In this document: positions 166 to 14,983 of the stretch, piece by piece
How the letters are laid out: each line of letters begins with the position of its first letter
Numbering within the stretch: position 1 is the first letter of the stretch
From: a virus
Taxonomy: Duplodnaviria; Heunggongvirae; Uroviricota; Caudoviricetes
Direction: 5' to 3' (one strand)
Virus record (IMG/VR): IMGVR_UViG_2529292981_000041
Length of the DNA stretch: 14,983 nt
The notes under the pieces: model-generated
What the model saw: the letters and a program-made list of their open reading frames with translations, nothing else
Told to the model about the DNA's origin: nothing
The model's database searches: none
Translations under genes and position numbers: made by a program

Positions 166-246
166 TTTAATTAAATAATTTTCACCGCAAAAAGTGCCAA
201 AAATCGCAAAATGACTACACCAGTGACTACACCGTTCGGTGCACTG

Positions 247-276
247 TATGAAACAACGTGGAACAAATAGACACAA
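247..276 (-). promoter_or_regulatory. Three tandem 10-bp TTGTT-type repeats (minus strand: ttgtgtctat ttgttccacg ttgtttcata)
   Basis: The 15-mer aacaacgtggaacaa at 252-266 is identical to 7716-7730 and differs by one base from the reverse complement of 13684-13698. Confidence 0.35.
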
Positions 277-387
277 GAAATATACAGGCGGATCATCTTT
301 CCAGGGGGAAGCGCACCAATTCATGAGGGGCGTTAATGTCGATATGGGGATCCCCACCTACCGGAATTTTTTTCCGGTTAAACGTTA

Positions 388-498
388 ATCAGGCTGGTGG
401 GCTTTACCTGTTCGGTAGGTGTTATGATTATCGTAATACCTTTCCCCCAATGGGGTAAAAGCATCAACCGTAACGAAAGTCGTTATGGTTGCCACTGA
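388..498 (+). pseudogene. Degraded fragment resembling the C-terminal region of a large terminase, opposite orientation to the island terL
   Basis: The 18-mer atcaggctggtgggcttt at 388-405 is the exact reverse complement of 1519-1536 inside terL, where it encodes IRLVGF. The plus frame here reads IRLVGFTCSVGVMIIVIPFPQ, against terL IRLVGFDTWNATHLRTQLQGAGFEVEPFPQ, then stops at 496-498. Confidence 0.3.
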
Positions 499-607
499 TA
501 CCCCAAATTTGGGTATCACGAGTAAGCCCCAAAATCTGGGTGTTACTCTTACTACCCAAACTACGGGTAGTTTCCGTAGTTTCATGGTCGAGTTGCAGAT
601 CTGCAAC
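444..607. repeat. Cluster of short inverted repeats (CCCAAA..GGG type) plus a perfect 16-bp palindrome
   Basis: Imperfect 21-bp palindrome gataccccaaatttgggtatc (498-518); ccca-aaatc-tggg (about 528-540); ctaccc-aaactac-gggtag (about 552-570); perfect palindrome gttgcagatctgcaac at 592-607. Confidence 0.4.
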
Positions 608-863
608 TCCCCCATTAACCACAGGCGAATTTCCGCCTTCGGTCATTCCTTAATCATCTGCGTAATCATAATGATTATTCAGCAAGCGCAATTTTGCGCT
701 TTGCTTAAAGTTCAGCGAGTTACCGCGCCGACTTCCTCAAATTGAGGTTTCCGAAAATATCAGCGGGTTAGCGATTAAGCTGACCATTAATTAAACTGCG
801 AAAATGTCGTAGTTGTGAGGGGTGTAGCCAACCCATTTTTGGGCCGTCGGGAATATCAACCAG

Positions 864-1145
864 TTACCGCCGCAACCGCTCCGGCTTCTTCCAGTGGTAC
901 GTTATTTTCTCCTTCTCCCGATACATCTCCACGCGGCGACGGTAGGCCAGCAACTCAAGAACTCTGGTTCGTATGTTGCGCATATCCACGCCATTAAGTT
1001 CTATACCATCACGGCGCATCACCTCAGCAACAACACGCGCATAGTTTTCGGCTGTCACGCTGTCCGGCAGCGTGGCCTGTTCGTCAGCCTGCTGGCTGAT
1101 TCCGGCAACGCGGCGGATTAATCCCGTTATTTCGGCTTCTGTCAT
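864..1145 (-). CDS. Hypothetical protein, last gene of the packaging operon (93 aa from ATG at 1145; a GTG at 1169 would give 101 aa)
   Basis: ORF MTEAEITGLIRRVAGISQQADEQ... lies directly downstream of terL and overlaps its stop. No recognisable motif. Confidence 0.5.
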   Translation of the reverse strand: MTEAEITGLIRRVAGISQQADEQATLPDSVTAENYARVVAEVMRRDGIELNGVDMRNIRTRVLELLAYRRRVEMYREKEKITYHWKKPERLRR

Positions 1146-1158
1146 GCTGCTGACCTCA

Positions 1159-2820
1159 TTACACCCCACTAAATTCTTCCAGTTTCTGGCGGTGGCTGTC
1201 GCTTATATCAAAAGCAAAATCCTCATGCTCTGCCTGGAATGTACCAAACGCCATCAGCGCCGCCACGCTCGGGTCTATCTTGTTCGGTGATTTTTTCTTG
1301 TTCGGCTTGATATTGGCGTTCGCGTCACTCTGCATCACGACGTTACTCATCGACCAGGACAACACCGGATCGCCACGATGCACAATCACCCTGCGGTTAA
1401 CAAAAACTTCGAACGATTTCGCCGCCGGACTGAATCTGAGGTAGGTTTGCGGGAACGGCTCCACCTCAAAACCTGCCCCCTGTAATTGCGTTCTGAGATG
1501 CGTGGCGTTCCACGTATCAAAGCCCACCAGCCTGATATTAAATTTCTCCGCGTCCTGCATGATGTCATCTCTGATCCGGTCGTAATCAATGCAGTCGCCA
1601 GGCGTTGTGCGTATCCAGCCTGCTTTAGCCCACTGACGATAGATGGCGCGGTTTTTATTGGCGGGGTTCTGTAGCTGGAACTCCGGCAGATAATGACGGG
1701 AAACCAGCATAATGGTTTTACCTACCGGAAAGGCATAGCACACGCTGGAAATATCGCTTGTGGATGATAAATCCAGCCCCGCGTAACACTCCTGGCCGTG
1801 TAAATCTTCCTCTGTGAACGTTCCGGCACACTCAGCCCATGCGCCGTTACCCATCCACGGGGTAGCCCCCTGGCACCAGATATTAAATCGCTTTGTCATC
1901 ATCTCCACCCACTGCGACGGAATACCCCGCGCTTTCTGGATGGTTGAGGCCAGTTTTTCACGATCCACGGAAACATCAATATTAGGGTTCGCCTTTATCC
2001 ACATCGCCGGATCATCAACCTCGTTTTCGTCGTCCAGTTCGTAAATCAGTACAAAAATTGAATCGTTGACCTCTTCGCCGTCCAGGATCTGGCAGCAATA
2101 ATCATAGTGCTGCTTACAGGCTGAAACGACGTTACTGCCTGATGTGGTAATAGCAAATAACAGCCCTTCGGGACGTGCGCCCATCCCCAGCTCAAGCGCG
2201 GAATAAACGCCGTTATCGGGGTGCAAGTGGTATTCGTCCACGATGGAAAGGCTGGGGTTTGTTCCCTCGATGGTTGCCGCTTTTGCTGCCAGCGGCTTTA
2301 ACAGGCTGTTGCTTTTCGGGTGTATCACCTTATGCGCCTGAATATTCACCCGCCTGCGTAACGGTCGGGATAAAAGGCACATCTGACGCGCATCATCAAA
2401 GACGATCCGCGCCTGGTCACGGCTCACCGCTGCGGTGTAGATATCCTGCTGACCGTTCTCCATAATCAGAAACCAGTTAGCCAGAATCGCGGCGGTCGTT
2501 GATTTCGCATTTTTGCGCGGCACTTCGATAAAGGCGCTCGTATATTTGCGCCGTCCGGTGGCCTTAACCTTAAAGCCGAGAATGCACGCAAAGGCGAACT
2601 GCTGCCACGGCTCCAGCTCAATGGGTCTGCCACGCATCGGCCCTTTTACGTGCGGGCACACCCTGGAAAAGGCAATAAACCGATCCACAACCTCACGATC
2701 GAACGTGTAAAGGGGGCTTTTAAGGTCCGAAAAGTACCGTTTAACGGCCTGTTTCAGCCGTTTACAGGCCGGAATTTTGCCCGTTTTTACGTCTTCTGCG
2801 TACTTATTCCAGGCGGTCAA
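1159..2820 (-). CDS. terL: Terminase large subunit (Terminase_1-like), apparent TTG start
   Basis: 553-aa ORF with the terminase ATPase P-loop context FIEVPRKNAKSTTAAILANWF and a nuclease-type C-terminal half. The furthest in-frame start is TTG at 2818-2820, preceded by GAGGA. It overlaps the terS stop by 17 nt. Confidence 0.9.
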   Translation of the reverse strand: MTAWNKYAEDVKTGKIPACKRLKQAVKRYFSDLKSPLYTFDREVVDRFIAFSRVCPHVKGPMRGRPIELEPWQQFAFACILGFKVKATGRRKYTSAFIEVPRKNAKSTTAAILANWFLIMENGQQDIYTAAVSRDQARIVFDDARQMCLLSRPLRRRVNIQAHKVIHPKSNSLLKPLAAKAATIEGTNPSLSIVDEYHLHPDNGVYSALELGMGARPEGLLFAITTSGSNVVSACKQHYDYCCQILDGEEVNDSIFVLIYELDDENEVDDPAMWIKANPNIDVSVDREKLASTIQKARGIPSQWVEMMTKRFNIWCQGATPWMGNGAWAECAGTFTEEDLHGQECYAGLDLSSTSDISSVCYAFPVGKTIMLVSRHYLPEFQLQNPANKNRAIYRQWAKAGWIRTTPGDCIDYDRIRDDIMQDAEKFNIRLVGFDTWNATHLRTQLQGAGFEVEPFPQTYLRFSPAAKSFEVFVNRRVIVHRGDPVLSWSMSNVVMQSDANANIKPNKKKSPNKIDPSVAALMAFGTFQAEHEDFAFDISDSHRQKLEEFSGV

Positions 2821-3160
2821 GCTCGTCCTCTTCTTCTGTTTCCGGTGGATTTTTACGGCGGCTTATCGGGTCAAAACCGAGCAAGGAGGCCATTTTTATC
2901 ATCACTCTTTCCGCGTCGGATTTCGCGCTTAATGCGGGGTTTCTGCTCTCTCCGCCCTGACTGTTAACAATGCTGAACCCGCGCGCCGCAAGGTCTGCGA
3001 CGGCTTTCCGGTATATCGAGTAATTGACGCAATACAGTTCCAGATTGCTCCAGTCGGCGGGAGTCAGGTCACCCCGTTCCGCAAGCTGCCGCGATTTTTC
3101 CCGCCACTGCTTCACGGCGATATCATCCAGGTAGGCGGGGGCTTTCGGTGGTCTTGCCAT
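2804..3160 (-). CDS. terS: Terminase small subunit, P27 family
   Basis: 118-aa ORF starting MARPPKAP, the RPPK N-terminal signature of P27-family small terminases, with an acidic C-terminus; sits immediately upstream of terL. Confidence 0.8.
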   Translation of the reverse strand: MARPPKAPAYLDDIAVKQWREKSRQLAERGDLTPADWSNLELYCVNYSIYRKAVADLAARGFSIVNSQGGESRNPALSAKSDAERVMIKMASLLGFDPISRRKNPPETEEEDELDRLE

Positions 3161-3214
3161 ACTTATTTTTTCGCCAGATTATTTTTCAAAAAATTCCCGT
3201 GCATAAAAATTTGA

Positions 3215-3265
3215 GGAGGCGGTCGGTGCCCGGCGGGGTCGGGTTTGTCCTGAAAACGCCCCCCA
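3215..3265. other. Candidate cos region (GC-rich block between HNH and terS)
   Basis: ggaggcggtcggtgcccggcggggtcgggtttgtcc sits in the only sizeable non-coding gap of the packaging operon, about 60-100 nt upstream of the terS start. Placement is by analogy with HK97-like HNH/TerS/TerL cos systems. Confidence 0.25.
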
Positions 3266-3283
3266 CCCCGTCATACAGCCTCA

Positions 3284-3466
3284 TCAGCGATTGCGGAAAC
3301 ATTCCATAACCTCGCGGTCACGGTCGGTTAATCGCTTCGCTGTGATGCGTTCTGCGCGTCCTGACGCTTTATCTTTATGCCCTGTTTCCTGTGTCTTCCA
3401 TGCGTCACGCTGCCTTATAAGTCCACGGATAAGGCGGTTTTGTTCCCGCTCATTCATCAGCGTCAT
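3284..3466 (-). CDS. Possible small basic protein (60 aa) between HNH and terS
   Basis: ATG at 3464-3466, MTLMNEREQNRLIRGLIRQRDAWK...; Arg/Lys-rich; overlaps the HNH stop by a few codons. Could instead be non-coding sequence around cos. Confidence 0.25.
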   Translation of the reverse strand: MTLMNEREQNRLIRGLIRQRDAWKTQETGHKDKASGRAERITAKRLTDRDREVMECFRNR

Positions 3467-3890
3467 ACATCCAGTTATTGCGGTTAGCGGCCCGTTCTTC
3501 CTCTTCACGAAACCCACCTGCGGCACGCTTGCTTTTTGTTGCCGGATCAAGCCATTTCGTTTTCTGGTTATGGCACGCCTGGCACAATGGCTGATGGTTC
3601 CATTCGGGCCAGAAGAGAACATCATCACCGCCATTAATCGGGATAATGTGATCCACCACCACGGCGGGCGTATATATCCCCTTCTCAAGGCATCGCACGC
3701 ATAACGGGTTTTTACTCAGATACATGGCGCGGTATTTGTCCCACTGTCTGGAGTACCCACGCGCGCGGCGGTGTCCTCGTCTGGCATCCTCTGCACGCCA
3801 TGCCGCCCGCCTGTGCTCCTCACACTTGCCGGACTTCACGCGCCTGTTACAGCCTGGTTCTGTGCATCGTCTTAATGGTTGCCACGGCAT
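3450..3890 (-). CDS. HNH endonuclease (packaging-associated)
   Basis: 146-aa ORF with Cys pairs CTEPGCNRR and CVRC, conserved His/Asn spacing (VVVDHIIPINGG ... NHQPLCQACHNQK). Its ATG shares one base with the connector stop. Confidence 0.85.
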   Translation of the reverse strand: MPWQPLRRCTEPGCNRRVKSGKCEEHRRAAWRAEDARRGHRRARGYSRQWDKYRAMYLSKNPLCVRCLEKGIYTPAVVVDHIIPINGGDDVLFWPEWNHQPLCQACHNQKTKWLDPATKSKRAAGGFREEEERAANRNNWMYDADE

Positions 3891-4186
3891 CAGTACACCC
3901 CCACATCACGGTAAGCCGTCCAGAGTGCACCAATCGTCATGGGTACGCGTGTTTTTGCGTTATCCGCGACAATCTGGCGATTTTCATACAGGTGAGCGAT
4001 AAACATCATGCAGCCAATCTTTATGGCTGGCGTGAACGCCAGCCCGTCATCAAAGCGCCTGCCTATGTGTATCTGGCACGCCTCAAGCGATGCGGCGATG
4101 TATCCGCTGATTAACTGGTCTTCCTCGTCGCCATCGATGCGGCAATGGAGTTTCACTTCTTCCAGGGTGATAAGTTCTTCTGTCAT
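3890..4186 (-). CDS. gp6-like head-tail connector protein
   Basis: 98 aa, MTEELITLEEVKLHCRIDGDEEDQLISGYIAAS..., the typical N-terminal motif of phage gp6-like connector proteins. ATGA overlap with the upstream gene. Confidence 0.65.
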   Translation of the reverse strand: MTEELITLEEVKLHCRIDGDEEDQLISGYIAASLEACQIHIGRRFDDGLAFTPAIKIGCMMFIAHLYENRQIVADNAKTRVPMTIGALWTAYRDVGVY

Positions 4187-4521
4187 TTTTCCGCGCCCTC
4201 ACGACAAAGAATTTCAAGGCGTGTCCTGGCGGCATCCGGCAGCGGCTGCCCGATGATATTCAGTACACGCCCCGCCAGCGGCCCCGTATTGACCTTTATC
4301 CGGCTGGTGGCGTTGATGTCCTTCCTGTAGCGTATCCATATCCTTACCGTTCCAGTCGCCAGTTCTGCACCCGATGAAATGGCCTCCTTGCTGCTGATCA
4401 TGTTCACGCTTGCCCAGAGTGTGTGACCGTCCACCCACGTTTCGAGTATTTCGCCGGTTATATCCCTGGTCTGTTTCAGGGTCTGAATCGTTACCCTGTC
4501 ACGCAGTCGCCCTATGTTCAT
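4183..4521 (-). CDS. Head-closure / head-tail adaptor protein (start MNIGRL)
   Basis: ATG at 4519-4521 overlaps the portal TGA stop (ATGA). Product MNIGRLRDRVTIQTLKQTRDITGEILETWVDGHTLWASV... fits phage head-tail joining proteins. Confidence 0.65.
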   Translation of the reverse strand: MNIGRLRDRVTIQTLKQTRDITGEILETWVDGHTLWASVNMISSKEAISSGAELATGTVRIWIRYRKDINATSRIKVNTGPLAGRVLNIIGQPLPDAARTRLEILCREGAEK

Positions 4522-5729
4522 TCCGGTTTTTCTCCCTCGCTGATTTTTACTTCCTGTTTCCATGCCTGGCTGAACTCATCACCACCATCACGCGGGGACA
4601 GCCCTTCACGTTCGCGGGCTTCGTTCGGGCACATAACGCCGGATTTGATGCCGCGTTCATAGGTGGCAAAGCGTTCGCCAGGAGTGGCCCGTAACAGGTC
4701 CGCGCTGTCAAACTCCACCTGATACCGGATACCAGGTACAGGTGAGGCCACCAGCAGGGCGTTTTTTATCTGCTGCTCAAAGTTCGCCAGCCACGGGCGC
4801 ATCGTCATGGTGAGAAATGCGCGGCTTGCCTCGCTGAAATTGCTGTAGGTGCTGTTGCTGTATTCCTGCAAAAAAATCGGCGAGACGTTGAACATTCGGG
4901 CGATGTCTTCAATGGTGAAGCGACGGGAGGCCAGCCATTCAGCATCCTGATTACTCATGCCCAGCTGCTGATAGCTCATACCCCCTTCAAGGATGGGCGT
5001 TTTTCCGGCGTTTCTGGCCCCTTTGTAGCGTTCCAGTGCGGCTAATGCCTGTTTACCCTTCACGCCGTCCAGCCACTCGCCTGACGTGATAACCCCTGCC
5101 GCCATCATGCCATCACGCATCACGCTCGCGCCGTGGCGTTGTTGGGCCAGCCCAAGCCCCAGCGATTCGCGGCAGATGGTTACAGGTGAGCGCCCCATAA
5201 AACCGTCATCCGTGGAGTAACGAAGGTGGAGAACCTCCCACGGTAAATAGTTGCGGGTGTTTCCGGTGTAGGCGTCAGTGATGCAGTAGCGCCAGTTATG
5301 CTCACCTGTCTGCTCCACGTTCACCGACTGCGGCGGGTAAGGATGTAAAGCCACCGGAAAACCATCACGCCCCCACTGAATCACCGCATAAGCATTACCG
5401 TTTAACAGGCAGTGGCGGATCATCATTCGCTTAAACTGGTAGGGGGTTTGCCATGCGTTCGGGCGCTCGTTGAGGATGTGATCGACCGGATGAGAATCAA
5501 GCCACTCTCGGGCCTCCTTCCCCTTCTCATTGCGTACCAGGTACAGGTAACACGGCATGGTAGCCACCGCCTCAGAGATGACCGTGACGGCGTTCATGAC
5601 GGCGGGCAGTGATTCCGCTGTCCCCGATGATACGTACTCACCCGCCCCCGTGTTCGATGTGCCAGCCAGCGCCATAAACTCATCAAGCGTCATGCTGCGC
5701 TGCTCTTTTTTTCTTCTGAAAGGCCACAT
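4518..5729 (-). CDS. Portal protein, HK97 family
   Basis: 403-aa ORF with portal-type segments (LLNGNAYAVIQW, DIARMFNVSPIFL). Start is preceded by GGGGG and lies 1 nt after the protease stop. Confidence 0.9.
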   Translation of the reverse strand: MWPFRRKKEQRSMTLDEFMALAGTSNTGAGEYVSSGTAESLPAVMNAVTVISEAVATMPCYLYLVRNEKGKEAREWLDSHPVDHILNERPNAWQTPYQFKRMMIRHCLLNGNAYAVIQWGRDGFPVALHPYPPQSVNVEQTGEHNWRYCITDAYTGNTRNYLPWEVLHLRYSTDDGFMGRSPVTICRESLGLGLAQQRHGASVMRDGMMAAGVITSGEWLDGVKGKQALAALERYKGARNAGKTPILEGGMSYQQLGMSNQDAEWLASRRFTIEDIARMFNVSPIFLQEYSNSTYSNFSEASRAFLTMTMRPWLANFEQQIKNALLVASPVPGIRYQVEFDSADLLRATPGERFATYERGIKSGVMCPNEAREREGLSPRDGGDEFSQAWKQEVKISEGEKPE

Positions 5730-5730
5730 A

Positions 5731-6288
5731 TCACACCCCCGCTAAATCCGCCCACCAGCGGCGATTATCCGCACGAGGCATTTTTTCAGGGTGCTGCTCA
5801 TACAGGGAACGGCGGGCCAGCTCCACGCCAGAATCAGGGTAAGCCGGTACGGATGTCACGGTAATTTCGTACAGTTCCGCTATCAGTACAGTACGCACAC
5901 ATGGATCGACTGTCGTATCCCATACATCCTTACGGGAACGAAAGCCAAAGCTCATGCCCGAGATGTCACCACGTTTAACCAGTTCGATAACGTCCCGCCC
6001 TGTGCTGGTATCCGGTGGGATCAGTTCAAAACGTAACCCTGTGTCATCCTCTTCCAGTCTCAGCGTACCGGAACGGGTGCGCCCCAGTAACATGCTGTGG
6101 TCATGCTCATACAGGCCGCGAACGTCATTACCCACCGCAAGCCATTCAGTAAACGCCCCCCGCTGGAATTTTTCGTAAAACTCCCCCCATAGCAGCTCTG
6201 AAAGGTTATCCCAGCGAACAACGTAGCCTGTAAGCGTGTTGCTGCCGCTGGTGGTGATTTCCGATGACCGGATTTCCATACTCATCAT
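5731..6288 (-). CDS. Prohead maturation protease, HK97 family (S78-like)
   Basis: 185 aa; motifs GYVVRWDN, GLYEHDHSMLLGRT and ISGMSFGF are characteristic of HK97-type prohead proteases. Confidence 0.85.
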   Translation of the reverse strand: MMSMEIRSSEITTSGSNTLTGYVVRWDNLSELLWGEFYEKFQRGAFTEWLAVGNDVRGLYEHDHSMLLGRTRSGTLRLEEDDTGLRFELIPPDTSTGRDVIELVKRGDISGMSFGFRSRKDVWDTTVDPCVRTVLIAELYEITVTSVPAYPDSGVELARRSLYEQHPEKMPRADNRRWWADLAGV

Positions 6289-6311
6289 AATTTTTTCACC
6301 TGTAAAACAGA

Positions 6312-6333
6312 GAAGGGGCTTTTTAGCCCCTTC
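6312..6333 (-). terminator. Perfect 9-bp GC-rich hairpin 10 nt after the capsid gene stop (possible partial terminator)
   Basis: gaaggggct-tttt-agccccttc. On the minus strand it is followed by tctgtttta, then the protease start. Confidence 0.45.
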
Positions 6334-6342
6334 GGTGTGCTG

Positions 6343-7500
6343 TTAATCGTCGTCCTGCGGCAGTTCCAGAATCTTTATAGCGTTCGAATCCACCACGCCA
6401 CCGCCTAAATATTTCTGCGTGAAAATTTTGATAAAGCCCGGCTCTGTCAGGTTGTCCGGTCTGGTGCGCACGCCCGTTTCATGATCAACGATGTAATAAC
6501 CGCGTTTGAAGTCACCCAGGGCGATAACGTTATCCGGCATAAATTCCAGATACTCCACCGGAAGCCCCAGCAACGTATCAGGATCACCCGCCTGTAAACG
6601 GTCGCGCCAGATGTAATCGCCGTTCGCGTTCTTCACCTTCTGAAGTTTTGCCGCCGTCGTGGAGTTAACCACCCAGACCGCGTTTTTGCGGTATTTTTTA
6701 CGTAATGCAAATTTCAGGTCGATCAGCGGGTCCGCAGATGTCCACGCCAGAGATTCGGAAGGTTTAATTACCTGCAACGTACCAAAATCACGCTCTTTGT
6801 CGTTCTTCTCTGCACGGGGTACGGATAAAAAACCTTTTGCTTTTTTGTCACCGTCGCCCACAACCAGATCGCTTTCTTCGGTTTCCGTGAAGGTGTCGCC
6901 AATCTCACCCGTCAGCCATGAAAGGATGTCCACATCGGAAAAATCCACGATTTCCTGTGTGGTGCGCGGGTACGCATAGACCGGATACAGCTTAATGCTC
7001 ACCTCGTTAATCTGCGGGGTGCTGGTCTGTTCGCGTGCCTTACCCTCTTCACCGTGGTTAACGGTCGCACCGCCAGCGGAAACAAGCTGCTTAAACTCGT
7101 TGCTGCTGATTTTCTTCACGGTACAGATGCGGCGCATGGTGGATTCATCCGCCAGCATTCGCATGATTTCGGTGTTCAGCTCGGGGATAACGGTATAACC
7201 ACCATCAGCGGGAACGCCTGTACTTAATGCGCGGGTTTCACCTGTCAGGATGTAGTTGCGTAGTTCTGCGGGGTCAGTGGTCTGACTGCTTTTACCTGGC
7301 TTGCTGCGCTCTTCGTCTGCAATGGCTTCAAGGCGGGAAATGTCTTTATCGAGGGATTCAGCTTTAGCGCGTAATTCGTCAAATTTTGCGCCCTCAGCAT
7401 CGTTAAGACTGCGGTTTTCTTTTTCCGCGTTCTCCAGCATGTCGCGCATCTGATTTTTAATGGCGGTTTTCTGCTGGCGTAATTCGATTATTCTCGGCAT
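6343..7500 (-). CDS. Major capsid protein, HK97 fold, with N-terminal delta (scaffold-like) domain
   Basis: 385 aa; charged, coiled-coil-like first ~110 residues (LRQQKTAIKNQMRDMLENAEKENRSLNDAEGAKFDELRAKAESLDKDISRLEAIADEE) followed by an HK97 MCP-like body. Confidence 0.9.
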   Translation of the reverse strand: MPRIIELRQQKTAIKNQMRDMLENAEKENRSLNDAEGAKFDELRAKAESLDKDISRLEAIADEERSKPGKSSQTTDPAELRNYILTGETRALSTGVPADGGYTVIPELNTEIMRMLADESTMRRICTVKKISSNEFKQLVSAGGATVNHGEEGKAREQTSTPQINEVSIKLYPVYAYPRTTQEIVDFSDVDILSWLTGEIGDTFTETEESDLVVGDGDKKAKGFLSVPRAEKNDKERDFGTLQVIKPSESLAWTSADPLIDLKFALRKKYRKNAVWVVNSTTAAKLQKVKNANGDYIWRDRLQAGDPDTLLGLPVEYLEFMPDNVIALGDFKRGYYIVDHETGVRTRPDNLTEPGFIKIFTQKYLGGGVVDSNAIKILELPQDDD

Positions 7501-8731: not shown

Positions 8732-8764
8732 TTGCCACCTCAATTTATATATATATAGAAACAT

Positions 8765-9082
8765 GTGCGGGTTATGCGGGTTATTGGGTTATCTTAGCGT
8801 GCTAACCATTTTTTATCCTTTTATATCAGCATGTTGCAAAACGCCCTGTTTATTATTTGCTCACCACATAACCCGCAAAACGCTCAAAATAACCCGCAAA
8901 CGGGGTTTTTTCTGCGGGTTACGCATGACTGTCCGGTGTTACTTCAGTTATTCGCCTGCGGGTTATAATCGTGCTTTTGCGGGTTATAAATGCCCTTTTG
9001 CGGGTTACGTGCGGGTTATTGATTTCCTTTATATTCATGCACTTAATACACTTATACACAGGATAACCCGCATAACCCGCAA
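8765..9082. repeat. Iteron-type replication origin: at least 11 copies of the 9-mer GCGGGTTAT / ATAACCCGC, AT-rich tracts and a DnaA-box match
   Basis: Copies at 8767, 8776, (8785 degenerate), 8868, 8889, 8914, 8958, 8979, 9000, 9011, 9063 and 9072, in both orientations; three are spaced exactly 21 bp. (TA)6 at 8746-8757; TTATACACA at 9052-9060. Sits immediately downstream of the replication gene. Confidence 0.7.
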
Positions 9083-9103
9083 TTTTTTTCCTCACACAGG
9101 GGA

Positions 9104-11236
9104 TTAATCTTCATCATCAGGCTGGAACATCAGCACGTAAAAAACATGCTGCTTACCCCCAATCTTGCCCAGCGCCTTTTTTTTGTATCGGCGATCGCTT
9201 CCCTTCTCCAGCATTCCGGCAGCATCCAGGGCACGCGCAAAATGCGCCGGATTAAATCCCTTCGCTATCTCACTCTCAAACACGTGCGGGAACGTGTAAT
9301 AGCGCATCTCGTCATCTTCGTTGCGAATGCTCCCTTTTCTGTATCCGGCAAGCTCTTTAATCGGTAAATCACGCTCATCTGTATTGGGGTACGGAAGGTA
9401 GCGGCTAAACCCAAACGACGACAAAAACGCCTCAGCCTGTTCAACCATCTGTTTAAATTCCCTGTTACCTGTGCCGAACTCCTTCACCCAGGCATTAAAG
9501 TTATGCTGTATCGCGTCGCGGCATTCCTGCACGACCCAGCCAGTTACATGACCGGAAAGCACAAGCGCGGCCTCCAGTATGGCGAAACGTTCACCCACGC
9601 GGTGGACCTGCTCGCCGTAACTCTCCGGTATCAGGTTGCGCCACCGTTCGCGGCATTCCCTTACCGTGTCCTTTGCCTCCTGCTGGTGGCCTGCCAGCCA
9701 TTTAACCCACTCACGACCCGCCGCCCCGTGATTTGCTGTCCAGGCATCCTTTAACGCGTCAGCATGTTCCTTACCGTTGCTGTATTCGTGAAATTTCGTG
9801 GCTTTTTCCATCGGAACGTTAAGCAGTCGGACAAGCTGCCCCGCCTTAACTTTTATCCCCTCACTTTTGAGGAATGTCTCAACGTCCATTTCTCCGGTGC
9901 TGATTGCCACCGTTCGCCAGTGTTTGATCTCCCTGTTGCCGCCATCCTTCGCCCCCTGCAATTTCCCTGAACCGTTAAACAGCGTATAAGCAGACGTTGA
10001 CACTTCCCGCGCATTTCCGGCCTGGCCTATCTCATCCAGTGGTAAAAGCCCGTCATTATGGGCCTCGGCCTCATTGGCAATACCTAACGCCGTGCCGTAC
10101 CAGGTCAGCCGCTGCGCGTCCGGCTCTCCCCATAAACTTGATGCGATGTTCTGCGTGGTGGTCTTACCTGCCGATGACTGTTCGAAAAGATGCACCCCGA
10201 AGCCGTCAGCACCCACAAGGCCAATTAAAGGCGCTGCCAGTGACGTTGCCACACCCAGTATCATTGAGGCATTACCGCCAGCCAGCCGCGCCACGCTGTC
10301 GCGCCAGCCATCCGCCGTGCCCGCCACGGAATAACCGTTAATCGCGGCGCTTTTTCCGGTAAACAGGATCGGTTTTTCAGATTCACCAATGATCGAACCG
10401 TCCGGCATGATGTACGCGCCAAAATGCCAGCCCGTTGTTGTGCTTAACTGCCATTCCTCATGGCTTCCGCTTAACTGCATCCAGTCCGCCAGGATTGCCC
10501 TGTATTTGCCGTTGGTTGTCACGTTCAGCCCGTGATCTTTAAGTAACCGCCAGCCGTCACGGTCGCCGATACCACCACACGGGATCGCCATTGTGATGAC
10601 TTTATGGTTTGCGGTTTTTTTCCAGCGCATCACGCGGTAATGCTCTTTACCGATCGTCCCCGTTCCCAGTAGTTCAAGCGGAGAACATAACCACGTCTCA
10701 GGCCGGATAATTTCGCCTGACTGCTTATCCACTTTGGGCGTTACCCAGAAAACACCATCGGCGCGACTTTCAACGCGTGGCTTTAATTCGTCATCGCTAT
10801 GGCTTCCGGTATCTTTTTTCTTTACCGGAAACTCAATAACCAGACCATCAGAAAGATTCTGCCGCTCACGGGCCAGATATTCGCGCCAGTTCTCCACCTT
10901 CTGACCGTGCATTCCTTCGGGGTAAAAATTTGCGTCCTGAATATCTGCCGCCGCCAGCTTCTGACCAATCTTTTTGGTCTCCACCAAATCCAGTTCTCCG
11001 GCCTGGTACAGCCTTACGCGTTTTTTTCCATCCGGAACAATTTTCAGCGCATCAAGTTCGGCAAGCTGATTTGGCCCAAGCCACACAGGCGGAACATTAT
11101 CGCCGGATGCGGGGCCATCCTGCTCCTGCCATTGTTTCGCGTGCGACCAGGCATCACTACCCGCGAAAATAATTACCTCTGTGTCTTTGTGTTTTATTCC
11201 GCGTGGCTGTTTTTTTACGTTCGGTGCCAGTTTCAT
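9104..11236 (-). CDS. Replication initiator, primase/helicase-like P-loop protein (DUF927-like ATPase)
   Basis: 710-aa ORF with Walker-A-like HLFEQSSAGKTTTQN, adjacent to the iteron origin, analogous to P4 alpha or PICI Pri-Rep proteins. ATGA overlap with the upstream gene. Domain assignment is from memory. Confidence 0.75.
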   Translation of the reverse strand: MKLAPNVKKQPRGIKHKDTEVIIFAGSDAWSHAKQWQEQDGPASGDNVPPVWLGPNQLAELDALKIVPDGKKRVRLYQAGELDLVETKKIGQKLAAADIQDANFYPEGMHGQKVENWREYLARERQNLSDGLVIEFPVKKKDTGSHSDDELKPRVESRADGVFWVTPKVDKQSGEIIRPETWLCSPLELLGTGTIGKEHYRVMRWKKTANHKVITMAIPCGGIGDRDGWRLLKDHGLNVTTNGKYRAILADWMQLSGSHEEWQLSTTTGWHFGAYIMPDGSIIGESEKPILFTGKSAAINGYSVAGTADGWRDSVARLAGGNASMILGVATSLAAPLIGLVGADGFGVHLFEQSSAGKTTTQNIASSLWGEPDAQRLTWYGTALGIANEAEAHNDGLLPLDEIGQAGNAREVSTSAYTLFNGSGKLQGAKDGGNREIKHWRTVAISTGEMDVETFLKSEGIKVKAGQLVRLLNVPMEKATKFHEYSNGKEHADALKDAWTANHGAAGREWVKWLAGHQQEAKDTVRECRERWRNLIPESYGEQVHRVGERFAILEAALVLSGHVTGWVVQECRDAIQHNFNAWVKEFGTGNREFKQMVEQAEAFLSSFGFSRYLPYPNTDERDLPIKELAGYRKGSIRNEDDEMRYYTFPHVFESEIAKGFNPAHFARALDAAGMLEKGSDRRYKKKALGKIGGKQHVFYVLMFQPDDED

Positions 11237-11532
11237 TTCTTACCCCTGAATACGTTAAGCATCTTTTTTATTTCCTGAATATTGGCGCGTGCTTTCTCCC
11301 TGCTGGTTGGTTTACTGCGGGGCGCTGCCTGTACCAGAGAAAAATCACGATCGAACTGATAAACAGGCATAACGCAGTCATATTCGTAGCCTTCACGGCG
11401 GTAAGTGATGCGGCGTTCTCTCACGCTGATAATCGTCACGATGCCGCCGTACTGGTCGCGGTAAATATCCCCGCGCATGAATTTAGTGCGAGTTTTGCCG
11501 CTGTCAGTTAAGCCAGGATATTTAAGTTTCAT
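11233..11532 (-). CDS. Hypothetical protein (99 aa)
   Basis: ATG at 11530-11532; stop overlaps the primase start (ATGA); MKLKYPGLTDSGKTRTKFMRGDIYRDQYGG... Confidence 0.6.
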   Translation of the reverse strand: MKLKYPGLTDSGKTRTKFMRGDIYRDQYGGIVTIISVRERRITYRREGYEYDCVMPVYQFDRDFSLVQAAPRSKPTSREKARANIQEIKKMLNVFRGKK

Positions 11533-11537
11533 TATTT

Positions 11538-11798
11538 TTATTCCCCGATAGCGTGACCTGATAAGCCGTTAATCTTCTCTGATATGCTCTCTATTTTGCT
11601 GGTTGAACTATCCAGTAATTCAGAAACGGCTAATATTAATCTTGCAGTTGATTCATCGCGTTCATTATTCACCAGCGACTGAAGCCACATATTCATTACT
11701 TCGTTTGCTGCGTTGTTTAAAGATATTGCGCTGTTGGCAAGGCTTCTTAATTCACTGGTCGCCAGTTTATTATTTTTCATAGCGTTCGGCTCTCTCAT
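11538..11798 (-). CDS. Hypothetical small helical protein, AT-rich gene (start ATG 11798 or 11780)
   Basis: ORF ...MKNNKLATSELRSLANSAISLNNAANEVMNMWLQSL...; GC content visibly lower than flanking genes. Confidence 0.45.
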   Translation of the reverse strand: MREPNAMKNNKLATSELRSLANSAISLNNAANEVMNMWLQSLVNNERDESTARLILAVSELLDSSTSKIESISEKINGLSGHAIGE

Positions 11799-11961
11799 CA
11801 ATTAACCACAGCGCAACACTTCCTGACAGTTTTGCCAGAAGGCCAGCTAATGCGGATATATCACCATCATTTAATTTATCAGGGTATACCTCAAGAAGGC
11901 GGCAAATAATTTCTGTCTGGTGCGCACGTTCAGCGGCTTCGTGTAATGTAATTTCCTTCAT
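11770..11961 (-). CDS. Hypothetical protein (63 aa)
   Basis: ATG at 11959-11961 with a strong AGAGGTG SD; TAATG stop/start junction with the upstream gene; MKEITLHEAAERAHQTEIICRLLEVYPDKL... Confidence 0.5.
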   Translation of the reverse strand: MKEITLHEAAERAHQTEIICRLLEVYPDKLNDGDISALAGLLAKLSGSVALWLIDERAERYEK

Positions 11962-12146
11962 TAATGCACCTCTTTTAATTCATACACTGCTGAAATAATG
12001 ACTTGTGATAAGCCATATTCTGATGATTCGCTTCTCACCGCAGCAATAGCCGTCTGAACATTAACAGCCTTCACATTCTGAGCGATACCAATTGTGTGGC
12101 CTAGTGGGTTAACAGCGCTGGCAAATACACGGAAGGTTTTAAGCAT
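11961..12146 (-). CDS. Hypothetical protein (61 aa from ATG at 12146)
   Basis: ATG preceded by GGGGG; MLKTFRVFASAVNPLGHTIGIAQNVKAVNVQ...; AT-rich. Confidence 0.5.
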   Translation of the reverse strand: MLKTFRVFASAVNPLGHTIGIAQNVKAVNVQTAIAAVRSESSEYGLSQVIISAVYELKEVH

Positions 12147-12411
12147 GGCACACCCCCTGACGAATACGGGCGGCAAATACAGCAACACAACCTGACGGGC
12201 AACGGCTACGCGCTTCGCGTTCCGTCCAGGCGGTTACGTGGATGATTTGAGATTCTCCGGCACTCAGTGCCAGAAAACGCCACACAAAGGCCGTTTGTGT
12301 GTGTACAAGGTGTGGTATATGATTTACAGCAACCATAACGGCTCCTAGTTTACGTTGTTGGTTAGAAGCCCTGCGAGTGGTAACGACACTTGCGGGGCTT
12401 TGTCTTTTCAT
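12139..12411 (-). CDS. Possible first ORF of the leftward early operon (90 aa); could instead be an untranslated leader
   Basis: ATG at 12409-12411 with AAGGT SD, about 23 nt downstream of the predicted transcription start. Ala/Val/Arg-rich composition is not convincing. Confidence 0.3.
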   Translation of the reverse strand: MKRQSPASVVTTRRASNQQRKLGAVMVAVNHIPHLVHTQTAFVWRFLALSAGESQIIHVTAWTEREARSRCPSGCVAVFAARIRQGVCHA

Positions 12412-12428
12412 CGATTACCTTGATAAAG

Positions 12429-12509
12429 GTGTCAGCCACTATATTAGTAACGGGTGTCAGCCACGTCAATAGTGTTTTTCCGTTTTCTTGTGTGTATACT
12501 GTCAGCCAC
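12429..12509. promoter_or_regulatory. Three direct operator-like repeats (G/C)TGTCAGCCAC at 12429-12439, 12454-12464 and 12499-12509
   Basis: The 10-mer TGTCAGCCAC is exact in all three (copies 1 and 2 share the full 11-mer GTGTCAGCCAC). Copies 1 and 2 overlap the leftward promoter (transcription start and -35); copy 3 overlaps the -10 (TATACT, 12495-12500) of the rightward RHH gene. Confidence 0.5.
12441..12469 (-). promoter_or_regulatory. Near-consensus sigma70 promoter driving the leftward early/replication operon
   Basis: Minus strand: TTGACG (plus 12464-12469), 17-nt spacer, TAATAT (plus 12441-12446). Confidence 0.5.
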
Positions 12510-12530
12510 CTAATAACGAGGAAATCAGAT

Positions 12531-12710
12531 ATGGCAACAAAAGCAGTTAATGCAAAATCCAAAAAGCTTGAGGCTCGAGTACCACACGCAATAGCTGATG
12601 CTGTAGAAAATTTAAAGGAAGATGGCGAAAGTACAGGGCAATTTATCGTTTCGGCACTTGAAGGCGAGATCAAACGCCGCCAGCGCCGCAAGGCCAAAGA
12701 ATCAGAATAA
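12531..12710 (+). CDS. Ribbon-helix-helix-type DNA-binding protein, candidate repressor (59 aa)
   Basis: ATG at 12531 with GAGGA SD; MATKAVNAKSKKLEARVPHAIADAVENLKEDGESTGQFIVSALEGEIKRRQRRKAKESE has a strand-helix-helix arrangement typical of Arc/CopG-like proteins. Divergent from the main operon; followed by a plus-strand terminator. Confidence 0.5.
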   Translation: MATKAVNAKSKKLEARVPHAIADAVENLKEDGESTGQFIVSALEGEIKRRQRRKAKESE

Positions 12711-12767
12711 TCACTATCAGCGCCGTGGTGTGAGGTATTACGGCGCATTGCTATGCAGGACAACACA

Positions 12768-12941
12768 ATGACCGATAAAGAATTGACCAAAACATTATCA
12801 CCGGCACGGAAAAGACGGCGCAGAAAGATAGAGCATGAATCAGAAAGATTCGCACCATGTGCTTTTGCCCTTGAGCAATTCCTTAAAGAGTACAGGGAAA
12901 AGCGCTCATTGCAGGTATGGCAACGAACTGAACCAGACTGA
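12768..12941 (+). CDS. Hypothetical small basic protein (57 aa), second gene of the rightward unit
   Basis: ATG at 12768 with AGGA 8 nt upstream; MTDKELTKTLSPARKRRRRKIEHESERF...; the terminator lies about 95 nt downstream. Confidence 0.35.
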   Translation: MTDKELTKTLSPARKRRRRKIEHESERFAPCAFALEQFLKEYREKRSLQVWQRTEPD

Positions 12942-13036
12942 TTGCATTGCCCACCAGCCTGATAGCGGCTATCATCCCCGTGCTTATGTTTGGGATCACA
13001 CACACAAACGGCGCAGCGGGTTATCTGTTCAGAAAG

Positions 13037-13064
13037 GCGGCTCCATTTCGGGGCCGCTTTTTTT
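13037..13064 (+). terminator. Rho-independent terminator of the rightward regulatory unit
   Basis: gcggctcc-atttc-ggggccgc (8-bp stem including one G-U pair) followed by seven T. Confidence 0.55.
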
Positions 13065-13210
13065 ATACCTGAAAAACCCCAATTTTGTTGTTTTTCAGTT
13101 TCACCAGGGCGAACGAATCCCCGCCCACGTTCTGGCGTATATTCAATCTTCATGGTTATAGCTCTGTGTTCAGATGATTGATGTGTGGCGGCTGCGTGCC
13201 GCCAGCGTGA

Positions 13211-13399
13211 TTAATGAACTGCCTTGCAGCTATCCTTCCAGGCCAGAACCTCGGATAAAGACCAGCCAACGGAACGACCGCCAAGTTTACGACGTGATGG
13301 GAATTGTCCGGCCTTTTCCAGGCGGTAGCGACACGTACGGCTAAGGCCGGTTAGTTTTTCGCATTCTTTTTCACGTATAAACCGATCAGTGCTTAACAC
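13211..13399 (-). CDS. alpA: AlpA-family regulator / excisionase-like protein (GTG start)
   Basis: 62 aa; CEKLTGLSRTCRYRLEKAGQFPSRRKLGGRSVGWSLSEVLAW matches the AlpA/Xis helix-turn-helix pattern (TGLSRSTIYR...FP..I.LG.RSV.W...EV..W). GTG at 13397-13399 preceded by a strong AGGGGGG SD. Confidence 0.8.
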   Translation of the reverse strand: MLSTDRFIREKECEKLTGLSRTCRYRLEKAGQFPSRRKLGGRSVGWSLSEVLAWKDSCKAVH

Positions 13400-13683
13400 T
13401 ATTGCCCCCCCTTTCGTTTCTTAAAGAGTCATCAGGTGTCTTATTGTGTCGTATTGTTCCCGCTAGAGTGATGAATGGCAAATATTGAGGATGTATGATT
13501 TACAGAAAATGAAACAGTAAGAATAAAATCTTTTAAATTCATGTTAATACAAAGGCATAAAATATTGTTTCATGCCTTTTTTCTCGCTCTTTAAAGAGTG
13601 ATTCGCTAGTGTATAAAAAACCAGTGACACATTAAAAATCAGCCACTTATAAATCTGTATGCTTTTTCGCCTCTTGTTCGTGG

Positions 13684-13723
13684 TTGTTCCACATTGTTGC
13701 TCATTGTTGCACGTTGTATCTGT
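13684..13723 (+). promoter_or_regulatory. Four tandem 10-bp TTGT-type repeats (ttgttccaca ttgttgctca ttgttgcacg ttgtatctgt) next to a 16-bp perfect palindrome
   Basis: Same repeat family as 247-276 and 7711-7740. Perfect palindrome cagtatgcgcatactg at 13733-13748; a plus-strand TTGCAC, 16 nt, TATACA promoter-like arrangement overlaps. Confidence 0.35.
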
Positions 13724-13765
13724 TCGCATATACAGTATGCGCATACTGAAAAAACACGAAAAAAA

Positions 13766-14983
13766 TTATTTTCTTCTGGCTACTGGTAGCGTGGTTACGT
13801 TTTCATGTGTTCCCGCCAGTATCCCTAACCGCTCCGTCCACATATCCAGCGCATTGCGTTTAGCATCCAGATAACGGGAATGATTATAAACTCGCTGCAT
13901 TCCTGGCATCTGGTGGCCTGTAAGCTGCTCCACGACATGCGGATCAACGCCTAAATCGTTCAGCATGGTTGTAAAGGTGCGCCGGATGTCATGCAGTGAC
14001 CAGTGAGGATGATTAAGCCTCCTGTGCGCTAATCTTCCATACTGCGATACGCTGGCCTCCTGTTTCACTTCCCCCAGCAATAAGCCCGTGTGCCTGTTCT
14101 GCTCCACCAGCTGCGTGACGAACGGCAGGATCGCTTCCGGTATGGGCCGGAATATTGCGACCTTCGTTTTGCTGTGCTCCTTCGGAACGGTCCATAGCAT
14201 TTCCGTAAAATCCCACTCCCCGATCTCCGATAACCTCAGTTCTACCGTTCTGGCTCCGAAGACAATCAGGAGGCGGATTAACGCGACGTAGTAAGGGGAG
14301 AATATTTTTTTGTCCAGTGCCTGCAATAATTCGCCAAGTTCTTTGTTACTTAAGACACGTTCGCTTATATCCGGTTTTTTCCCAACGTCCGCCACGTTCA
14401 GATCGTCCAGAACGTTGCTGATTGCATAGCGCCGCCTACGGCAGAACTTAAGCGCCTGTTTGCACGCCTGTAGCACGAATCCGGCAGTAACAGGCGTTCG
14501 CTTTGCCACCTGGTCAAAACAGGCCAGCCAGTGCCGTAGCTCGCATTTATCCAGCGGCATAGCACCAATCTGCTGTATTACGTGATTATTAAGTCGCCTT
14601 TTCAGGGCGATATAATCCACGCGGTTTTCCTTTACGTAATACTCAAGCCAGTAGGTGAGCGCATCGCCAACCGTTACCGGCTTTAACGCTTCCTGTACGG
14701 TGTAATTAAGCTCATGACGTGGATTTTTCCCCTCTGCCAGCCATGCGCGACACTGGGCGGCTTTTTCCCTGGCTGATTTCAGGCTCAGATCAGGATAACT
14801 TCCCAGCTTAATGCGTTCGGGTCGTGTCTCCCTTCCCGTTCCGGCCCTGTATGTGAAATACCAGGTCAATTTCCCTGATGTTAAATATTTCACGCTCAGG
14901 TTTCCGCCATCACTATAAAACGTGTTTTTCTCCGCTGGCTTACCATGAAGTTTCCTTAGCAAGGTATCGCTCAGTTTGTTCAT
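13766..14983 (-). CDS. int: Tyrosine integrase, P4-like, with N-terminal arm-binding domain
   Basis: 405-aa ORF, ATG at 14981-14983. Catalytic signature present: Arg in FGARTVELRL, HxxR in HDIRRTF, and Tyr region RVYNHSRY. The N-terminal ~90 aa are arm-binding-like. Confidence 0.95.
   Translation of the reverse strand: MNKLSDTLLRKLHGKPAEKNTFYSDGGNLSVKYLTSGKLTWYFTYRAGTGRETRPERIKLGSYPDLSLKSAREKAAQCRAWLAEGKNPRHELNYTVQEALKPVTVGDALTYWLEYYVKENRVDYIALKRRLNNHVIQQIGAMPLDKCELRHWLACFDQVAKRTPVTAGFVLQACKQALKFCRRRRYAISNVLDDLNVADVGKKPDISERVLSNKELGELLQALDKKIFSPYYVALIRLLIVFGARTVELRLSEIGEWDFTEMLWTVPKEHSKTKVAIFRPIPEAILPFVTQLVEQNRHTGLLLGEVKQEASVSQYGRLAHRRLNHPHWSLHDIRRTFTTMLNDLGVDPHVVEQLTGHQMPGMQRVYNHSRYLDAKRNALDMWTERLGILAGTHENVTTLPVARRK

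Follow-up and report, generated by a model that had tools for sequence, protein, structure and literature searches.

The experimentally characterised prototype of the capsid-forming PICIs (cf-PICIs) is EcCIEDL933 of E. coli O157:H7 EDL933 (Alqurainy et al., bioRxiv 10.1101/2022.09.08.507074; He et al., bioRxiv 10.1101/2025.02.11.637232). It is induced by the phages HK106 and HK446 via alpA, builds capsids of 42-47 nm from its own proteins, packages only itself and requires helper tails only, the tail specificity being set by its own adaptor and connector proteins (Alqurainy et al.; He et al.). The order capsid-protease-portal-connectors-hnh-terS-terL has been reported for proteobacterial cf-PICIs, and the family uses six attB sites in E. 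coli (Alqurainy et al.; He et al.); the published criteria include a size of about 10-18 kb (He et al.).

The stretch of DNA analysed here (the window, 14,983 nucleotides) is 100% identical to the chromosome of E. coli O157:H7 strain SS TX 754-1. We are highly confident that the island in it is a cf-PICI of the EcCIEDL933 lineage, inserted in tqsA of E. coli O157:H7. Since it is 96% identical to EcCIEDL933 the element is real but already known; judged by its sequence it is a sibling of the published prototype and not a new type. Gene order and content are the same in the two elements, with 96-97% nucleotide identity over approx. 95% of the length (96.3-96.7% over window positions 852-12408, weaker homology across 156-15171). 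For twenty proteins the identity to the EcCIEDL933 counterpart is 86-100%: it is 100% for AlpA, TerS and five small proteins (the Icd-like one and four without known function) and 99.5% for the capsid and portal proteins. Gene content was determined with Pfam profiles, the PGAP annotation and, for the small ORFs, PHROGs.

The features at the ends of the island are the following:

1-137, plus strand: 5' fragment of the host tqsA gene (AI-2 exporter; PGAP), ending in the attL core TGCTGTTAT at 129-137
138-863, no strand: apparently non-coding variable region, located downstream of the packaging operon and 75-90% identical to EcCIEDL933
212-234, plus strand: tandem pair of GTGACTACACC repeats, putative arm-type sites for integrase binding
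13766-14983, minus strand: tyrosine integrase (PF13356 and PF00589)

The insertion in tqsA is precise. The 9-bp att core TGCTGTTAT is repeated at the window-equivalent positions 15171-15179, about 196 bp past the end of the window, which gives an island of 15,042 bp between the cores, and the rejoined flanks restore an intact TqsA reading frame of 344 amino acids. The sequence-only reading had expected attR beyond 14983, where it was indeed found, while its left end at 166 has to be moved to the att core at 129-137. Past the right end the 3' part of tqsA follows, then pntB and pntA, so the search for tail or lysis genes beyond the window gave none; the flanking genes altogether are tqsA, ydgV/mdtJI and pntBA. 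A second GTGACTACACC pair lies outside the window at 15021-15043, and the EDL933 element carries analogous ACTACACC pairs at both its ends. In the region 138-863 PGAP called no gene, and the ORFs there gave no PHROG or PADLOC matches. The integrase starts 12 nt past the window end, i.e. the first 4 codons of the 409-aa protein (PGAP) are outside. It is 95% identical to the integrase of a classical PICI at the tqsA site and 92% identical to that of EcCIEDL933, from which it differs at 18 positions within the first 60 residues.

EcCIEDL933 resides in the phoQ-roxA intergenic region, and the tqsA copy does not share its att site. Since the cf-PICI family is reported to use six attB sites in E. 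coli, the choice of tqsA versus phoQ-roxA concerns the identity of the allele and not the membership in the family. The same tqsA att site is used by the classical PICI of strain RM10466; in a full-text literature search no paper connected PICIs with tqsA/ydgG. The idea of two cf-PICI copies in the host was rejected because the phoQ site of the same genome is occupied by a classical PICI.

All annotated genes of the island are on the minus strand, except the YlcI/YnfO-family gene at 12531-12710. The head and packaging module comprises:

6343-7500, minus: HK97-fold major capsid protein with N-terminal delta domain (PF05065, 2e-61)
5731-6288, minus: HK97-family prohead serine protease, S78 (PF04586, 4e-46), 93% identical to EcCIEDL933
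4518-5729, minus: portal protein (PF04860, 9e-91), 99.5% identical to EcCIEDL933
4183-4521, minus: head-closure / head-tail connector protein (PF05521), 105 of 112 residues as in EcCIEDL933
3890-4186, minus: gp6-like head-tail adaptor (PF05135), 97 of 98 residues as in EcCIEDL933
3450-3890, minus: HNH endonuclease, packaging cofactor of HK97-type terminases (PF01844), 99.3% identical to EcCIEDL933
3284-3466, minus: 60-aa protein between HNH and TerS (phrog_3173), 100% identical to EDL933
3161-3283, minus: candidate cos region, placed by its position in the gap that separates the 60-aa gene from terS
2804-3160, minus: small terminase TerS, P27 / Terminase_4 family (PF05119, 1e-23), 100% identical to EcCIEDL933
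1159-2820, minus: large terminase TerL (PF03354 and PF20441), 98.6% identical to EcCIEDL933
864-1145, minus: 93-aa protein without known function, encoded at the end of the packaging operon (phrog_1561, 5e-55), 86% identical to the EDL933 orthologue

Eight head/packaging components gave Pfam E-values between 1e-8 and 1e-91 with intact reading frames, and the nine proteins from the capsid to TerL are 93-100% identical to their EcCIEDL933 counterparts. Read on the minus strand from 7500 to 1159, capsid, protease, portal and connectors are followed by hnh, terS and terL. The capsid protein (383 of 385 residues as in EcCIEDL933) matched PDB entry 9gyi_B over its full length (E=1.4e-255); in its translation the SxGxxAD maturation motif begins at residue S93, and a terminator-like hairpin lies 3' of the gene (6312-6333). 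By gene order the 60-aa protein is probably 'gene 1792' of EcCIEDL933, the numbering being deduced from MCP = gene 1786; mutation of gene 1792 severely reduced transfer (Alqurainy et al.; He et al.). The seven head-closure substitutions relative to EcCIEDL933 could change the tail compatibility. No tail, holin or lysis gene was found by Pfam, PGAP or PHROGs among all annotated genes between the att sites.

The cos site is most likely located in the gap between HNH and terS, a placement by position. This gap contains a GC-rich imperfect palindrome, CGGGGTGGGG(N15)CCCGACCCCG, and is the same as in EDL933 at 121 of 123 positions; the 16.5-kb record of vB_KppS-Ant is linearised within the homologous gap. 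The HK106 record was discarded as a guide to cos, as it begins at terS and not at a physical end.

The replication operon and its surroundings contain the following features:

7788-8060, minus: PerC-family protein (PF06069, 3e-43)
8073-8483, minus: ssb, a pseudogene through a TGG>TGA nonsense mutation in codon 81 (window 8241-8243)
8480-8731, minus: 83-aa protein of unknown function (phrog_1231)
8763-9088, no strand: replication origin with 11 iterons (TAACCCGC core) in both orientations, by repeat count
9104-11236, minus: DUF927 primase/helicase-type replication initiator, pri-rep (PF06048, 1e-48), 96.9% identical to EcCIEDL933
11233-11532, minus: DUF4222 protein (Pfam/PGAP/PHROGs)
11538-11780, 11770-11961 and 11961-12146, minus: three small proteins of unknown function (PGAP/PHROGs)
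12139-12336, minus: Icd-like protein, with which the replication operon begins (NF033153, 6e-18)
12365-12401, no strand: 15-bp-stem hairpin in the icd leader, unchanged across the alleles compared

The 11 iterons span 8767-9080 and are accompanied by an AT-rich tract (8740-8762). In the whole window TAACCCGC occurs 13 times against 0.54 expected, a count reached in none of 200 shuffles. EcCIEDL933 has the same origin with 11 iterons and the same cos-candidate gap; the origin region is 98% identical to that of EcCIEDL933 and to that of one classical PICI. The DUF4222 protein and the three small proteins (11233-12146) are 92-100% identical to EcCIEDL933. The folding energy of the 111-nt icd leader region is not exceptional (z = -0.7), although the hairpin is present.

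These features bear out the central part of the sequence-only reading, that of a satellite which lacks a tail but encodes an HK97-type capsid and cos-type packaging machinery of its own: the island is near-identical to EcCIEDL933 and carries what the published cf-PICI criteria list. Pfam and PGAP confirmed the integrase, AlpA, the replication initiator and the full head and packaging set, and the repeat count confirmed the iteron origin. The integrase, AlpA regulation and pri-rep replication modules are all present (He et al. 2025 criteria; SatelliteFinder cfPICI model), 11 of 11 SatelliteFinder cfPICI core components were found, which makes the element Type A, the tail and lysis components that count as forbidden in a cf-PICI are absent, and the 15,042 bp fall within the size range of the family.

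The same reading had suggested that the regulatory content (a divergent RHH switch, a PerC-like gene and an ssb with an opal codon) may mark a distinct lineage, and this part could not be maintained. PerC (87% identical) and ssb are also present in EcCIEDL933. The opal codon does exist, but it is a plain nonsense mutation: the EDL933 orthologue has TGG where the window has TGA, thus ssb is a pseudogene here, as also marked by PGAP, which flags two pseudogenes inside the island. A terminator-like hairpin lies 3' of perC (7764-7781), and the tqsA copy lacks a 330-bp segment that EcCIEDL933 has between perC and the capsid gene. The divergent gene is likewise present and its product is predicted to be RHH; however, it belongs to a patch common to classical PICIs. 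The features downstream of alpA are:

13211-13399, minus: AlpA, master activator of Gram-negative PICIs (PF05930, 5e-17)
12706-13153, minus: 5' remnant of the 247-aa gene found downstream of alpA in EcCIEDL933 (PGAP, alignment)
12531-12710, plus: YlcI/YnfO-family protein, predicted ribbon-helix-helix (RHH) fold, divergent from icd
12430-12509, no strand: three exact 10-bp TGTCAGCCAC direct repeats (starts 12430, 12455 and 12500), candidate operators

The RHH gene sits in a recombination patch of about 300 bp, 98% identical in classical E. coli PICIs, which in the tqsA copy replaces the part of the 247-aa gene encoding the C-terminus; the gene downstream of alpA is reported to be variable between working cf-PICIs (Alqurainy et al.; He et al.). 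The remnant gave no family matches. YlcI is predicted to have the strand-helix-helix arrangement of RHH repressors. A single-sequence AlphaFold run returned an uninformative two-helix model (pLDDT 74), and there was no match in a PDB sequence search or in Pfam at E<=0.1. The TGTCAGCCAC repeats, which are not in EcCIEDL933 but are found in classical PICIs, overlap a promoter-like site of the icd-rep operon on the minus strand, TTGACG-17-TAATAT (12469-12441), and adjoin a conserved TATACT at 12495-12500. A second allele has the three repeats altered in concert, and the YlcI proteins differ in an N-terminal segment, which would be the predicted DNA-contacting strand. Rfam gave nothing credible in the whole window at the gathering threshold or in 12100-13800 at E<=1; ahead of icd it detected no antisense RNA of the C4/CI type. 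We put forward only tentatively, as a rather unlikely proposal, that the YlcI/YnfO RHH protein and the three co-varying repeats act together as a repressor-operator (immunity-type) module in Gram-negative PICIs and cf-PICIs, gating icd-rep independently of AlpA and existing in several specificity alleles. In the literature searched such a module is undescribed and no repressor of Gram-negative PICIs was found; AlpA is described there as the master regulator. If the proposal is true, the tqsA variant would be controlled differently from EcCIEDL933, which is without the module, and might answer different helper-phage cues. The patch is the only mildly new point of the element. In the ten small or unannotated ORFs, including those of the variable left end, PADLOC found no defence systems, and PHROGs assigned the small ORFs to families of unknown function only.

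The alternative that deserves most attention accepts the descent from cf-PICIs but takes this copy as defective or decaying, with an incomplete cycle, persisting only vertically in one O157:H7 sublineage. Some decay did occur, because a nonsense codon interrupts ssb and the gene following alpA has been cut short; PGAP counts two pseudogenes. Among 5,426 complete genomes the tqsA-inserted form turned up in only 5, and four of these are O157:H7 or cattle/beef isolates at 100% identity. However, the fifth genome, at 99.8% identity, comes from a human isolate. The reading frames of all 11 core genes are intact, and their identity to functional orthologues is 92-100%; the origin is conserved as well, and so are the att sites and the cos-candidate gap. 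Moreover, the gene after alpA is reported to vary among working cf-PICIs, and any part played by ssb in the cycle is putative. We regard a defective copy as unlikely.

An HK97-like prophage remnant that lost its tail, lysis and lysogeny modules is a far more remote reading, to which we give hardly any credence. The head and packaging genes are homologous to those of HK97-type phages; HK97 and HK106 have the same families (HK97-fold delta-domain capsid, S78 protease, portal, gp6 adaptor, gp7 head closure, HNH-dependent terminase), and the sister element, EcCIEDL933, is annotated in strain Sakai as 'prophage Sp7; untypable'. Unlike these phages, the island has no tail, lysis or lysogeny-switch genes, and its module begins with the capsid gene and ends with hnh-terS-terL. 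Its ends are clean att sites within a host gene, the int-alpA-icd-DUF4222-DUF927-ori-ssb-perC half is a PICI module 94-98% identical in classical PICIs, and megablast against 50,697 phage records gave nothing above 78% identity or 13% coverage, HK106 and HK97 showing no nucleotide-level match. The comparison with cf-PICI representatives and the phage collection thus led to EcCIEDL933, experimentally shown to be a satellite, as the best-matching architecture and not to a degraded full prophage. Even less probable is a classical PICI remodelling and hijacking helper capsids instead of building its own. Int, alpA, rep, origin, ssb and perC are common to classical PICIs (tqsA site of RM10466; phoQ site of the same genome), and EcCICFT073-type elements carry the same int/alpA/icd/DUF4222/DUF927/ori/ssb module, 94% identical over window 8073-11547. 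These, however, have only a capsid-like gene, a decoration protein and TerS, without portal, protease, adaptor, connector, HNH or TerL, whereas portal, adaptor, connector and TerL of the island are forbidden in the SatelliteFinder PICI model and diagnostic of cfPICI; the gene content already refutes this reading. For its gene content, together with the identity to the prototype, the degraded-prophage and P4-like readings were rejected too.

A more distant relative is vB_KppS-Ant (LR881103.1), a 16.5-kb 'Escherichia phage' record from an induced prophage. It has the same layout (int, primase, capsid, protease, portal, connectors, HNH, small ORF, TerS, TerL) with about 77% nucleotide identity over the portal-to-HNH segment, but another integrase and primase and, after TerL, an extra 2.3-kb gene annotated as tape measure protein. 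It belongs to the same cf-PICI family, though distantly.

For the tqsA copy, read as a cf-PICI, we infer the life cycle from what experiments showed for the prototype, to which it is 96% identical. A helper phage such as those of the HK106/HK446 type would switch on alpA, Int would excise the island, and the DUF927 replicase would amplify it, starting at the iteron origin. A small T=4 capsid would be formed by the capsid protein, protease and portal that the island itself encodes, and its own HNH, TerS and TerL would cut and package island DNA only, most likely at cos in the HNH-terS gap; the adaptor and head-closure proteins of the island would then join the filled head to a helper-phage tail. 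The 86-100% protein identity suggests that induction via alpA, small capsids of its own, self-only packaging and the need for helper tails only may apply here as well. The island (15.04 kb) fits the T=4 capsid carrying the 15.5-kb prototype; the HK97 capsid is T=7.

By putting self-made, DNA-filled capsids on the tails of unrelated phages, cf-PICIs move genes between strains and even genera. The tqsA copy adds little to this picture. It shows that a head module of the EcCIEDL933 type circulates in O157:H7 at a second chromosomal site, disrupting the AI-2 exporter gene tqsA, that a cf-PICI can coexist with a classical PICI in one genome, and that the integrase-proximal half recombines freely with classical PICIs.

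At 100% identity the 14,983-bp window matched E. coli O157:H7 strain SS TX 754-1 (chromosome) and two more genomes, while a fourth genome gave 100.0% identity with a lower bit score and a fifth 99.8%. The minus strand carries nearly all genes of the window. Each member of the gene set named in the sequence-only reading was confirmed by Pfam and NCBIfam models, as follows:

13766-14983, integrase (the start assigned by PGAP lies 12 nt past the window end)
13211-13399, AlpA
Icd-like protein, DUF4222 protein and a 710-aa DUF927 primase/replicase
PerC-family protein and SSB
capsid protein (PF05065), S78 prohead protease, portal, head-closure protein and gp6-like adaptor
after the gp6-like adaptor gene, HNH endonuclease, Terminase_4 TerS and TerL

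An array of 11 TAACCCGC copies in both orientations, adjoined by an AT-rich tract, follows the replicase gene downstream. Across the whole window the motif occurs 13 times where 0.54 occurrences are expected, a count that no sequence among 200 shuffles reached; the iteron origin is therefore real. The two lone copies distant from the origin, at 763-770 (left-end non-coding region) and 13016-13023 (truncated gene after alpA), may be chance matches or additional replicase binding sites.

The element between phoQ and roxA in E. coli O157:H7 EDL933 is EcCIEDL933, the prototype capsid-forming PICI (cf-PICI; Alqurainy et al., bioRxiv 10.1101/2022.09.08.507074), and it aligned to our sequence with 96.7% identity over window positions 852-12408 and with 94.5% over 12704-15171. 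The 20 orthologous proteins were 86-100% identical, including the capsid (383/385), the portal (401/403), and TerS and AlpA (both 100%). The capsid protein matched PDB entry 9gyi_B over its full length (E=1.4e-255), and its SxGxxAD maturation motif begins at residue 93, the position where He et al. (bioRxiv 10.1101/2025.02.11.637232) placed the mature N-terminus. In a phage database of 50,697 records nothing matched the window with more than 78% identity or more than 13% coverage, in accordance with the distance between cf-PICIs and phages reported before. The island shows every cf-PICI property that can be tested by sequence: its size lies within 10-18 kb, the integration, regulation and replication modules are all there, the packaging module is complete and island-encoded, and lysis and tail genes are absent. 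All 11 core components of the SatelliteFinder cfPICI model are present and none of its forbidden ones, and the proteobacterial gene order is kept, with the capsid gene first and hnh-terS-terL last. These properties and the close relationship to the prototype support the earlier interpretation of the stretch as a cf-PICI. The system is biologically striking but has been published already, and our copy shares 96% identity with the prototype.

In the source genome the island interrupts tqsA, the AI-2 exporter gene. The 9-bp core TGCTGTTAT occurs twice, at window 129-137 and 188-196 bp past the window end, and removal of the sequence between both cores leaves an uninterrupted TqsA frame of 344 aa. 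The island is thus 15,042 bp long, with its right end just past the window, and its left end, placed earlier at 166, had to be moved to approx. 138. Paired GTGACTACACC repeats near each end look like arm-type integrase sites. Tail or lysis genes immediately outside the window would have refuted the earlier reading; the flanks hold host genes alone, ydgV and mdtJI on one side and the remainder of tqsA with pntBA on the other. Since tqsA is interrupted at approx. codon 46 (window 1-137; positions 23172-24077 of the source-genome locus L001) and the 3' fragment on the attR side is preceded by a TAA in frame, the AI-2 exporter gene is most likely inactivated in carriers of an island at this site.

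The integrase is 95% identical to that of a classical PICI at the tqsA site and 92% identical to that of EcCIEDL933. Its residues 1-60 are the same as in the former and differ from the latter at 18 positions, i.e. 18 of the 33 differences from EcCIEDL933 fall within this segment (window 13766-14983 and beyond; L001 21766-22995). The arm-type repeats differ too, GTGACTACACC in this island versus TTAACTACACC in EDL933. Sequence comparison thus suggests that the integrase N-terminal domain and the arm sites travel jointly with the choice of att site. The phoQ-roxA site, occupied by the cf-PICI in EDL933, holds instead a classical PICI in the host of the island (NZ_CP038300.1 3206843-3215000, i.e. 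41843-50000 of locus L008), with genes for TerS, a decoration protein, a capsid-like protein, PerC, SSB and a RepA helicase. In this host a PICI and a cf-PICI thus coexist, a pairing present in only 47 genomes of the SatelliteFinder survey.

The life cycle proposed here is drawn from experiments on the prototype and carried over to this copy. In EcCIEDL933 the helper phages HK106 and HK446 induce alpA, capsids of 42-47 nm (T=4) are built from its own proteins, and its own adaptor and connector proteins govern the choice of tail. By analogy, such a helper would switch on alpA, followed by excision and replication of the island; island-made proteins would form 42-47-nm T=4 capsids with island DNA as sole cargo, and the helper would supply only the tails, selected by the island adaptor and connector. 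Since the adaptor (97/98) and the head-closure protein (105/112) match their EcCIEDL933 counterparts, our best guess is that HK106-type tails would be used. The cos site is probably located in the 123-bp gap between a 60-aa gene and terS (window 3161-3283), because this gap is conserved in EDL933 (121/123), contains a GC-rich imperfect palindrome, and is homologous to the gap within which the 16.5-kb vB_KppS-Ant record was linearised. This record (LR881103.1, 'Escherichia phage vB_KppS-Ant'), of induced prophage origin, shows the cf-PICI layout in full and lacks a tail module apart from a 2.3-kb gene behind TerL, for which the annotation is tape measure protein; apparently a cf-PICI-like satellite was submitted here as a phage.

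The regulatory content had been taken as a possible mark of a distinct lineage, a view the comparison does not support. EcCIEDL933 also carries PerC and ssb, and PerC-like genes are reported to be frequent among Gram-negative PICIs. In ssb, the opal codon is a one-base difference from EDL933 (TGG>TGA) in a gene annotated by PGAP as a pseudogene, and is decay rather than recoding. The ribbon-helix-helix (RHH) gene sits in an approx. 300-bp patch (window 12408-12704), which stands in place of the 3' part of the 247-aa gene following alpA and shares 98% identity with the corresponding region of the classical PICIs of RM10466 (tqsA) and 6817 (tRNA-Pro); a 351-bp query spanning it was covered to at least 80% in 167 of 5,426 genomes. 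He et al. found two other cf-PICIs to vary in the gene that follows alpA as well as before and after the packaging operon, and all three departures of the island from the prototype coincide with these regions. The integrase identities are consistent with the same mosaic picture. Therefore the island is a recombinant allele of a known element and not a new lineage. Between perC and the capsid gene, EcCIEDL933 has about 330 bp (positions 9752-10080 of the EDL933 locus) missing at window 7760-7786, comprising a 225-nt ORF plus a fragment for which the annotation is frameshifted 'trigger factor'; a homologous 225-nt ORF occurs in the phoQ-site classical PICI of the same host.

'Divergent RHH switch' was a fair description. 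The RHH gene, ylcI (12531-12710, plus strand), diverges from icd (12139-12336, minus strand), with repeats between them. The 59-aa YlcI/YnfO-family product had no Pfam match and no PDB sequence match; its structure model, built from 60 homologues, has a pLDDT of 90. Three exact TGTCAGCCAC repeats separate the two genes: two flank the -35 and -10 of a promoter-like site on the minus strand, and the third abuts a conserved TATACT immediately upstream of ylcI. In the allele of strain 20.1, YlcI is 68% identical, with several differences in the N-terminal segment, the predicted DNA-contacting strand, and the repeats occupy the same three positions as two copies of TGTGGCCCAC and one of TGTCCCCCAC, while the promoter-like hexamers and the 45-nt leader hairpin are unaltered. 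Since the repeats and the YlcI N-terminal segment both differ between the alleles, this suggests a putative cognate repressor-operator pair controlling the icd-rep operon; no paper describing such a pair was found in the literature searched.

The hairpin (12365-12401, 15-bp stem), some 30 nt ahead of the icd start, is part of an approx. 45-nt block that does not differ between the window and strain 20.1, the flanks being only about 75% identical, and falls in the segment aligned to EDL933 at 96.7%. It had no Rfam match and an unexceptional folding energy; a role as regulatory RNA or as protein-binding element is possible. A lambdoid prophage in this host genome carries a ylcI paralogue (L008 21589-21783) just upstream of nohD, a small terminase homologue; the YlcI/YnfO RHH family is thus common to lambdoid prophages, near cos/terminase, and to PICI regulatory regions.

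Since EcCIEDL933 works without it, the YlcI module is accessory, and its function is putative. It is the single mildly new point about the island, whose residual value lies in this RHH-operator lead and in the mosaic that joins cf-PICI and classical-PICI sequence.
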